Below, piece by piece: positions 55,201 through 58,200 of a DNA stretch of 64,000 nucleotides. How positions within the stretch are numbered: the stretch's first letter is position 1; every line of letters begins with the position of its first letter. The position numbers are program-made. This DNA is from Escherichia coli O157:H7 (GTDB taxonomy: Bacteria > Pseudomonadota > Gammaproteobacteria > Enterobacterales > Enterobacteriaceae), in assembly GCF_013167455.1 (NCBI RefSeq), contig NZ_CP038328.1; one strand, written 5' to 3'.

Positions 55201-58200
55201 CATAATCAAGAAGGGCCCCCTTGCCGATAGAGTTAATAATCGAATGCGTACTGCTACCAATAATCGGAAAACGCTTTATAAAACGGTCAAATTCATCCCT
55301 GTATGTCTCTGCCGAGAATGAACTTCTTGTTGAAACATTTCTTCGCAGATGTTGCTTTAAATAAAGCATAGACCATGATGTCAGGCGCCCCAGTAAAATT
55401 TTAAAATCAGATTTTTTAAATGCTTCCTCATATTCATTCAGAGAAATTTGTTTTTCCCGGATATTTTTTTCATAATAAGAAAGCTGAAGAGAAGTAAATA
55501 GCGCCAGCCTTCTCTCCGGAATCATCAATGGTTTGACTTTCAGTATCATGAAGTTTAACAACAAATCAATTCTGTTTCTGAATCCAATCCGCCTGTCAGA
55601 AAGGTAATGAATATAAGCCATCAGGTCGGTTGTTTTTTGTGAGGAAAATCGGTATTTGTGAGAAAAAAGCTCCTCCGGTCGAAGATTCTGACTCTGCCAT
55701 TGCTGCAGGTATTTATACTCAATATTCAGCTCATTAATTTCTGCTTTTAACGAAGCGACCTGGTTAATGGCATTCAGGTGTTTTTTCACTTGTTGAAGTA
55801 CATCATCAATCGCATTTGCAGACGGTGAGTCAGGTAAGACTTCCTCAGAACGCGAAATCGACGTTGAAAAAAACTGTTGCCTGTTCTCCGTACTCCCCAG
55901 TCGTGCCATCACATATCCCAGTTGCTGTTTGTCCATCTTTTCATAAACATTACTGACAGCTGAGTTATTATTGGACAAAATTGCCACTGTTTTATTCTGA
56001 ATTAATATATTAGCAACAATATTGAGTATAGTCTGTGTTTTACCTGTTCCAGGTGGTCCTTCAATAACTGAAATCTGTGAGGAAAATGCCCGTTCGACAG
56101 CCAGCAACTGACTTTCATTAAGACCAAACGGAAAAATCAAACCCCATGGCGAATCACGTTTTTACTCTGTCCTGAACAGTATGCATGCAAGGCGGTATCC
56201 GGATGAGGAACTATTTTCTTTATCTGCCTAAGGATATTCTCATCGATATTTCTGTTATTACCACGGGCATAAAAAATACGTTCATTAGCCACCCTACACA
56301 AGTAATTAAACACGGCATGCTCTGTAAATGCTGAACACTGTTGAAAGTCAAGGCCGGTCGTTTTCATGATGTAGGGTCGTTCACCCTCGCGGTAATAAAC
56401 AGCAGCATATTTATCACCATATATAATAACCAGTTCAGCCCGGGATGTTACAGCGTTCCCTTTCCTTTCGAGGAAAACATTTCGCAAATTTACAGTTGGC
56501 GTTATCTGACATACAGAAAGCGGACGAGTATATTTTCTCCCGCTGCGAAAATGACAGGTCAGCATAACCTCTCTGTCGTCATTTCCAGCCCACAGCGTCC
56601 AGTCGGTAATTTTATGAGTCTTATTTTCACCGTCAACACAAATCGTGACCATATTCTTACTCAGAAATTATCATTTAACTTACGGAAAATTGTTAAGGCA
56701 CTCCCGATATTAGCTCCGGAGGATTTTCCACAACTCCGGGACTGTTAACATATTTCTGCCTGCCATATATACATTGAATTTAGTCATAACAGTCAATACC
56801 AGAATTACAGGAATGCGATGCCGATACGCTGGTTATTGAATACTGGTAGCCCCTGAGCACTAATTCATCACGATACTCTGTATTTACTGTTTTCACTGCT
56901 TTTTACAACCATTCCCCCAGGTAAAATGCTGCTCCTCCGGTGATGGCTGTGTCAGAAACTGCCATCCCGGAATAGCCACGCTGACCGCCAGCAATGCCGC
57001 ACAGACACCAGCCACAAACGGTTTCAGAAACGTGGGCGGGGATTTCTGAAGGGAGGGTGACTGCTCCGCCTGCACTTTCCCCTTGCGATTATCAAGGCTC
57101 AGTGCATCCAGACGCACCGCGCCATTTGCCGCAAGCAGCCCTTCCCGGTTATCCACGCTTCCCGGCAGACTCAGCGAAAAATCCCCTGTTCCCGTCTGAA
57201 TCAGACTGCCTTTACGATTTGACAGGCTTTGTGCCGATATCTGCAGTGTGTCGGCATTTATCGTACCGCCATTACTGCTGAACTGCCCGGCAGTCCGGGC
57301 GGAAAGCGTATCGGCACTCAGTTGCGCATTCTGTGTAGACAGATTTCCACTGGTTGCATTCAGCTCAGTATGTTGTCCCTGTATCCGGCTGTTACCTAAA
57401 TCCAGCCCCTGCTCAATGTCCCGTAAATCCAGCAGAGAACCTTCGTGTGCCGGGAATGAGGAATACAACTGAATATAGTCATCACTGTCCGGTGTCAGAC
57501 GCACATGTCGCACAACACCGGGAATAATAACCAGCCGGAGGATACCGCTTTTTAAATCCTGCGAAGGTGCCAGAACACGGGGGGTGACATAACCATGATC
57601 GACCAGACGGTTCTGCAATGTACTCATCAGCAGATTAATTCCTTTCGCCCCCAGGCAATGCCCGACCGCCCCGTTGGCGATTTTTTGTAAAGGCAGCCAG
57701 TGTGGTAACGCATCAGCCCCCTTCAGTTCCGTCTGTTTAATCTGAAAACAGGGCGTTTCAACAGGAAAATTAATCTTATGGGCAAAAGAGCCAGGTGCAG
57801 AAAGGCGAACATCAGGGGCTGAAGGCGTCAGTTGTTGCTCAAGGGCTTCCTGACGCTGCTGCTGAATGATAAATGCTTCATCTCCGCTACGCCGGACATC
57901 CGCTGCCTGAAGAGATAAAGGCGATAATAAAGCAGACATCAGTGTCAGTGACAGCAAGGACGGACAGCGCCGGAATAAGCTTTGTTCCTCAGTCCTCTCG
58001 TTCCTGCAACATAATTTTCCAGTCAAACGAAAAACCTTTTATTCATGTCATACCAACAATCACCAGCCTCCTGACGATACCTCCCACCATGTTTTGCGAT
58101 GGCACGCTACCGCCCTTCCGGTATTTACCCGCATCAACCGGTACCAGAATGCTGAGTAACAAACCAGCTAGAATTGACTTAATTTTGATCATTATAGAAT

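Follow-up and report, generated by a model that had tools for sequence, protein, structure and literature searches.

Introduction

Among the described systems, the class IV contact-dependent inhibition (CDI) loci come closest to the locus reported here. Their hallmark is a cdiC gene located between cdiB and cdiA (Halvorsen et al. 2021, PMC8510554). In E. coli STEC_O31, class IV loci kill neighbouring cells after binding to the LPS core, and CdiC lipidates the receptor-binding domain of the system (PMC8510554). The same study also mentions cdiB-mutant loci, such as that of S. enterica S-1643. CdiB is a TpsB/Omp85-type protein, as are FhaC, ShlB and HecB.

Here we analysed a stretch of 64,000 nucleotides from E. 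coli O157:H7 (the window, to which all coordinates refer unless another locus is named). A preliminary description, made from the sequence alone, had regarded one short ORF on its minus strand as a deletion remnant of a cdiBA-like locus. Alignment to intact loci of the same island backbone bears this view out directly: cdiB codons 1-209 and an internal piece of cdiA are joined by a 2,985-bp deletion. The ORF is very probably a pseudogene, the non-functional remains of a class IV cdiB-cdiC-cdiA-cdiI locus in an O157-type genomic island. A literature search yielded no description of this O157 relic.

Results

Structure of the open reading frame

We compared the window with E62, SHP24, O104:H4, CFT073, E600003, SW070919 and L008, the last being an intact locus that was reached via the protein P0033. 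Together with counts in complete genomes, this comparison gave the origin of each segment, the junctions, the missing parts and the distribution of each junction. The ORF consists of four collinear pieces joined in frame, and the region upstream of it is preserved:

56893..58026, minus strand: chimeric ORF, the single ORF found there, 377 codons, TTG start at 58026
58027..58400, minus strand: former cdiB 5' untranslated and putative promoter region, kept and collinear with intact loci
57401..58026, minus strand: segment 1, cdiB codons 1-209 with signal-like region, POTRA1 and truncated POTRA2, without the beta-barrel
57401..57412: junction A, 12-bp microhomology TCCAGCCCCTGC
57060..57400, minus strand: segment 2, internal cdiA piece, native frame retained (CdiA residues ~437-554 of 2981; FHA-1 repeats)
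57058..57059: junction B, from cdiA to the vasL-like gene, 2-bp overlap (TG)
56927..57059, minus strand: segment 3, part (~44 codons) of a T6SS ImpA_N/VasL-type gene, native frame retained, TM helix included
between 56912 and 56927: junction C, from vasL to the flank of a helicase gene
56893..56926, minus strand: segment 4, helicase-side flank with 11 read-through codons and the stop; codon 367 spans junction C

Profile searches and a hydropathy plot of the translated ORF gave the following features:

aa 94-170: POTRA_2 (ShlB-type), Pfam, E=2e-21, complete (profile 1-76/76)
aa 172-209: POTRA_3, Pfam, E=5e-9, profile positions 2-40 of 56 only, i.e. cut short
aa 279-314: filamentous-haemagglutinin 20-aa repeat (fil_hemag_20aa), NCBIfam, E=6e-11
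aa 330-359: hydrophobic segment, Kyte-Doolittle 19-residue mean up to 2.1

The E-values of these domains are far beyond chance. The POTRA_3 domain in the CdiB of SHP24 covers profile positions 2-56/56, and its ShlB barrel domain (PF03865) is detected with E=3.6e-110; in the ORF, the Pfam and NCBIfam profile searches revealed neither this barrel nor a TPS domain nor PT-VENN. The TpsB-type, POTRA-like amino terminus of the preliminary description is thus recovered as POTRA_2 plus a truncated POTRA_3, and both peptides quoted there are present in the translation. Its statement that the ORF is far too short for an intact TpsB or CdiA is borne out by the intact relatives, which measure 550-579 aa (CdiB) and 2981-3037 aa (CdiA).

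Translation could begin at any of three start codons (58026, 57957 or 57939). The RefSeq version of the protein, WP_001345400.1, is named 'POTRA domain-containing protein' and comprises 348 aa, beginning at the internal ATG at 57939. A second TTG at 57957, 18 nt 5' of this annotated ATG, is likewise contained in the window ORF; it matches the position, 18 nt 5' of the cdiB ATG in the annotation, at which translation of cdiB-STEC4 has been proposed to begin (PMC8510554). Residues 21-42 of the 377-codon ORF are hydrophobic and are followed by LQA/AD. Judging from PMC8510554, the region 58027..58400 would have held the promoter.

Segment 1 lies within a 2,884-bp DNA alignment to L008 (window 60284-57401) with 99.9% identity. 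On the protein level, CdiB residues 1-180 share 98.9% identity, and similarity to the intact CdiB stops at residue 180 of 550. Within POTRA1, the window differs by T148P from all intact CdiB proteins inspected. Segment 2 (~114 ORF codons, ~4% of CdiA) has a DNA identity of 94.9% to L008 5859-6212 and of 92.7-93.0% to E62 and SHP24, and the tblastn result agrees. The resemblance to the FHA-type repeats of CdiA noted earlier therefore holds, as the fil_hemag_20aa repeat is found and the piece corresponds to CdiA residues ~437-554.

Segment 3 is 97% identical to positions 9001-9133 of the E600003 locus (L006), where it lies within an uninterrupted vasL-like ORF of 454 aa; its tail is identical in a 274-aa ImpA_N ORF of SHP24. 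The vasL share of the ORF comprises codons ~323-366, and its TM segment corresponds to about residues 220-265 of 454. The ImpA_N and VasL domains are absent both from the ORF (Pfam) and from the window (tblastn with the VasL-like protein). The 'unrelated hydrophobic tail' of the preliminary description needs to be refined accordingly: residues 330-359 are hydrophobic indeed, yet they are the in-frame TM segment of a neighbouring vasL-like gene.

The ancestral locus

An intact copy of the ancestral-type locus exists, and its flank is 99.9% identical to the window. In L008, the genes are arranged in the order cdiB (550 aa), a gene for an HlyC-family acyltransferase (175 aa), cdiA (2981 aa) and an 86-aa hydrophobic ORF (orf86) that overlaps the cdiA stop. 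The CdiA of this locus has ESPR, TPS, FHA-1, FHA-2 and PT-VENN regions (VENN at residue 2766) and a glycine-rich CT. In SHP24, whose CdiA likewise carries ESPR and TPS, the candidate cdiI is a 78-aa ORF (orf78) with a two-TM look, which also overlaps the cdiA stop, and a typical orphan cdiA fragment is located 3' of it. L008 and the window have the backbone genes for UCP030791, an ECs1377-family protein, a 77-aa ORF and DUF4222 in common.

The syntenic intact loci carry an HlyC-family cdiC between cdiB and cdiA (HlyC E=1.7e-34). In addition, a sister chimera from another strain (P0094) has the same CdiB amino terminus joined to PT-VENN and Ntox25, the toxin domain reported for CdiA-STEC4 (PMC8510554). 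The cdiC architecture of the intact loci and the Ntox25 domain of P0094 identify the ancestor as a class IV cdiBCAI system.

When CdiB, CdiC, CdiA, orf86, orf78 and the VasL-like protein were used as tblastn queries, the ORF was the sole match in the 64-kb window. No trace of CdiC, of the CdiA C-terminal region or of the CdiA ESPR/TPS domain was detected in the window (tblastn; Pfam on the ORF).

A generic two-partner secretion locus for a haemolysin or an adhesin (ShlBA/FhaBC-like) as the origin, instead of a CDI locus, would be compatible with the surviving POTRA domains and FHA repeats, which are common to all TPS systems, and with the RefSeq name, which refers only to a POTRA or ShlB/FhaC/HecB-family protein. 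However, the syntenic intact locus with its 99.9% identical flank has a PT-VENN CdiA with a polymorphic CT, a small overlapping membrane ORF and cdiC, an architecture that is class IV CDI and has been demonstrated experimentally for STEC_O31 (PMC8510554). The sister chimera P0094 with its Ntox25, as reported for CdiA-STEC4, also speaks against a generic origin. We consider such an origin highly improbable, and the intact comparators refute it in practice.

Comparison with described systems

The ancestor shares its gene order with the class IV cdiBCAI of STEC_O31 (Halvorsen et al. 2021, PMC8510554), to which it is likened by architecture. In contrast, what is left in the window amounts to no more than 36% of cdiB and 4% of cdiA; cdiC, the receptor-binding domain, the toxin and its immunity gene are missing, so that the window is unable to work as a CDI system. 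In short, the ancestor is a class IV cdiBCAI locus, and the window has none of the functional properties of one.

With TpsB/Omp85 proteins the ORF shares an intact ShlB-type POTRA1 and the normal beginning of POTRA2, and its amino terminus is signal-like. POTRA2 is, however, cut at position 40/56, and the whole 16-stranded barrel (PF03865) is gone; whereas a TpsB protein requires two complete POTRA domains, the ORF has one. The similarity to T6SS ImpA_N/VasL-type proteins is limited to the TM segment, as the ImpA_N and periplasmic VasL domains are absent. Degraded and orphan cdi modules offer a further parallel, since here, too, a CDI locus in a genomic island has been inactivated. Yet the orphan cdiA-CT/cdiI modules keep toxin and immunity, whereas the window relic keeps the opposite end, i.e. 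the cdiB 5' end and an FHA-1 piece.

Deletion junctions

At least three deletions by illegitimate recombination shaped the ORF from a cdiB-cdiC-cdiA-cdiI locus that was located beside a T6SS vasL-like gene. Deletion A, spanning 2,985 bp between 12-bp direct repeats, fused cdiB codon 209 to cdiA codon ~437. The cdiB and cdiA genes of SHP24 each contain a single copy of the repeat TCCAGCCCCTGC, with a spacing of exactly 2,985 bp (995 codons), and such an arrangement is the signature of a microhomology-mediated deletion. Across this junction the barrel of CdiB, the whole of cdiC and the ESPR/TPS domain of CdiA are lost and the frame is kept.

Deletion B fused cdiA, at codon ~554, to the central part of vasL. 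Compared with SHP24, ~14.7 kb are lost at this junction, comprising the rest of cdiA, PT-VENN, CdiA-CT, the candidate cdiI, the orphan cdiA fragment, T6SS remnants and IS elements. Deletion C cut vasL and fused its remainder to the helicase-side flank. Because junctions A and B both keep the native frames, a single 377-codon ORF runs through the cdiB, cdiA and vasL pieces.

Distribution of the junctions

Junction A is present in 491 of the 5,426 complete E. coli genomes, junction B in 496/5,426 and junction C in 626/5,426. The chimeric allele itself occurs in ~490 complete genomes of several serotypes, and the cdiB-cdiC-cdiA 5' region in ~190. Junction C is also found in islands with a complete cdi locus (e.g. 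SHP24) and is therefore probably the earliest of the three. Judging from the nested counts only, the order of deletions would have been C, then B and A.

A form with A and B yet without C occurs in none of the 5,426 complete genomes. One short-read contig (P0002/L013) shows junctions A and B with an intact vasL 3' half and without C. It is probably not a real intermediate but an assembly chimera that arose via a shared 133-bp segment, and we kept it out of the ordering of events. By its annotation, H94 (PEC1013) also looked like such a form, but in fact it is a mislabelled vasL fragment.

Other lineages have lost the locus in different ways. In O104:H4, cdiB codon ~43 is fused to the ImpA_N part of vasL; in CFT073, an out-of-frame fusion links cdiB, at window position 57590, with the VasL domain; and P0037 and P0094 are further in-frame fusions at the same locus. 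To judge from these breakpoints, the cdi locus was evidently deleted independently in several E. coli lineages (CFT073, O104:H4, P0037, P0094).

Among 5.8 billion proteins searched, the ORF was matched end to end only by copies of its own allele, annotated with a length of 377 or 348 aa, and by one 554-aa variant; a known intact family of about 377 aa, which the preliminary description had named as the finding that would speak against a relic, did not emerge. The idea that the ORF belongs, as an intact protein, to a genuine ~377-aa family, which RefSeq might suggest by treating WP_001345400.1 as a normal protein in a cluster of more than 1,000 member sequences, or that the mosaic is an assembly artefact, can be practically discarded, as the full-length matches are all 97-99% identical copies of one allele, all more distant homologues are CdiB proteins of 550-579 aa aligned to residues 1-209 only, and the junctions occur in ~490 independently finished genomes, which rules against an assembly error.

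Genomic island and neighbouring small ORFs

The ORF region matches chromosomes of E. coli O157:H7 with 99.9% identity. The island around it is a mosaic that contains IS elements, the remnant of an Ag43-type autotransporter and a split helicase. An IS3-family element is located ~40 bp upstream of the ORF start in O157 strains of the TW14359 type.

It had been suggested that an orphan immunity gene might persist among the small ORFs at 58614..60408. The data do not support this proposal. The ORFs sit 5' of cdiB, and their order is the same beside intact loci and beside every deletion variant. They belong to the island backbone, being 99.9% identical beside intact loci, and represent DUF4222, the ECs1377 family, unnamed backbone families and PHROGs of unknown function. 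Profile searches of these ORFs gave no match to CdiI, to a defence system or to an informative phage family, and the candidate immunity proteins orf78 (SHP24) and orf86 (L008) had no tblastn match in the 64-kb window. The position of cdiI, immediately 3' of cdiA, is deleted in the window.

Annotation of related loci

On the basis of their PGAP pseudo-fragments, the 'long-form' loci of E62 and SHP24 could be taken as already decayed. We rejected this view, as the SHP24 cdiB and cdiA proved uninterrupted on translation. The cdiB (550 aa) and cdiA (3037 aa) of SHP24 and the vasL-like gene of E600003 (454 aa) are uninterrupted ORFs, but PGAP splits all three into several 'incomplete' fragments. 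These fragments coincide in their coordinates with segments 1-3 of the O157 chimera. It is likely, to judge from the coordinates, that the splits are caused by the use of the chimera as protein evidence. In other genomes, vasL pieces are labelled POTRA or ShlB/FhaC/HecB.

Discussion

The architecture of the chimera suggests that it can act neither as a TpsB transporter nor as a CdiA effector. Since the barrel is missing, neither insertion into the outer membrane nor export of a partner is to be expected; the partner, the toxin and the immunity gene are gone as well. If made at all, the product would presumably be a Sec-exported POTRA/FHA fragment that is tethered by the vasL helix and has no role.

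The ORF is open across the three junctions, and no visible disruption was seen in the genomes inspected. Two points were counted against a relic: the open frame could hint at retention, and the upstream cdi regulatory region is kept. An open frame does not require selection, however, because two in-frame junctions have a chance of about 1 in 9 and the flank is 0.1% diverged. With a flank 99.9% identical to the intact locus, the allele appears too young for decay.

A different explanation would be an expressed neo-protein with an acquired role, i.e. a Sec-exported POTRA and FHA fragment with the vasL helix as inner-membrane anchor, which might for example modulate envelope stress or interfere with incoming class IV CdiA. 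The frame that stays open through all junctions fits this idea, as do the intact signal-like amino terminus and C-terminal TM helix, the preserved cdiB upstream region and the presence of the allele in ~490 complete genomes of several serotypes. Nevertheless, POTRA1 is the only complete domain, an IS element is located ~40 bp upstream of the start in some O157 strains, other lineages destroy the locus differently (out of frame in CFT073), and the spread of the island alone can explain that of the allele. No sigma-70-like site was found on the minus strand upstream of the ORF at the threshold of the scan, a result that is uninformative either way. Altogether, we regard a neo-protein as very unlikely. 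Even less probable is the more specific scenario in which the chimera undergoes translation and export, is anchored by the vasL helix and has been co-opted, e.g. against class IV CdiA or by affecting Bam/TPS biogenesis; if true, such a co-option would account for the open frame in ~490 genomes.

The ORF is an ordinary deletion relic of an already known system, and its biological importance is small. Flagging WP_001345400.1 as a chimeric pseudogene would clean the annotation of class IV cdi and T6SS genes in hundreds of genomes. For the biology of E. coli, the relic means that O157-type SpLE1-like islands very probably once carried a class IV CDI system, of which it is the remainder; it adds a further case of a competition locus that has decayed within a mosaic island.

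Variation at and around the chimeric ORF

Many O157:H7 genomes carry an IS3-family insertion about 40 bp upstream of the TTG of the chimeric ORF, as in strain TW14359 (L011, 5421-6634; equivalent to window position ~58065), and the element parts the ORF from what was once the upstream region of cdi. No such insertion is present in the window. Within the ORF, codon 148 (window 57583-57585) encodes Pro in the window allele (YVTPRVLAP), whereas Thr occupies this position in every intact CdiB retrieved and in P0002, a CdiB-related protein from a short-read contig. The exchange is non-conservative and lies inside the POTRA_2 (POTRA1) match; as an anecdotal observation, it is compatible with relaxed constraint.

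Two proteins from other E. coli strains, P0094 and P0037, which the window does not encode, are in-frame fusions that arose independently at this locus. In P0094 the CdiB signal region and POTRA1 are fused straight to PT-VENN and an Ntox25 toxin domain; in P0037, CdiB through POTRA2 is joined to the C-terminal VasL domain. Strain SHP24 has a short orphan cdiA fragment (L005, 8014-8214; 96.7% to residues 2659-2719 of the intact CdiA of L008) downstream of the candidate cdiI, a placement shared with typical orphan cdiA-CT arrays. The window has lost all of this stretch through deletion.

Neighbouring genes

The vasL-like gene on one side and a PAPS-reductase and ParB-like (ibrAB-like) pair on the other bound a variable slot (window ~53000-56900, with equivalents in loci L004, L006 and L007), which looks like a hotspot for defence cargo. 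Its contents differ by strain:

Cargo of the slot
O157 and O104:H4: helicase
E600003: type II Zorya
CFT073: Qat system nearby
SW070919: SdiA-regulated-domain protein and AAA helicase

Downstream of the chimera, the SF1 helicase of the window (53972-56652, minus strand; AAA_11/AAA_12, with DUF2726 at the C-terminus) is split into two ORFs of 171 and 722 aa that overlap by 4 nt. Together they amount to 893 aa, the length of the single O104:H4 helicase gene (WP_001390455.1). PADLOC returned partial MkoA/MkoC-like matches, and the split gene is probably an inactivated defence-type gene.

Window 60854-63802 may be a second eroded competition locus. Here two genes, one for an intramembrane protease of the CPBP family and one for an alpha/beta-hydrolase, are cut by an IS1 (61562-62259) and adjoin a 374-aa sugar-nucleotide-binding glycosyltransferase (62678-63802). 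Since the equivalent O104:H4 backbone runs on into the microcin exporter mchF, a microcin-cluster remnant is suggested.

Annotation of intact loci

The coordinates of PGAP pseudo-fragments ('incomplete' POTRA, ShlB or hypothetical) coincide with the three segments of the O157 chimera WP_001345400.1.

PGAP pseudo-fragments in the compared island loci
L005 (SHP24): 19350-19940, 16062-16427, 1199-1375
L006 (E600003): 9003-9143
L003: 6195-6371
L007: 9003-9116
L012: 6003-6131

Beneath them lie uninterrupted ORFs: in SHP24 the 550-aa cdiB and the 3037-aa cdiA, in E600003 the 454-aa vasL-like gene. The same pattern recurred in all 30 best matches of a genome search with the cdiB-cdiC-cdiA 5' region. 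The chimera WP_001345400.1 appears to seed mis-annotation in hundreds of genomes.
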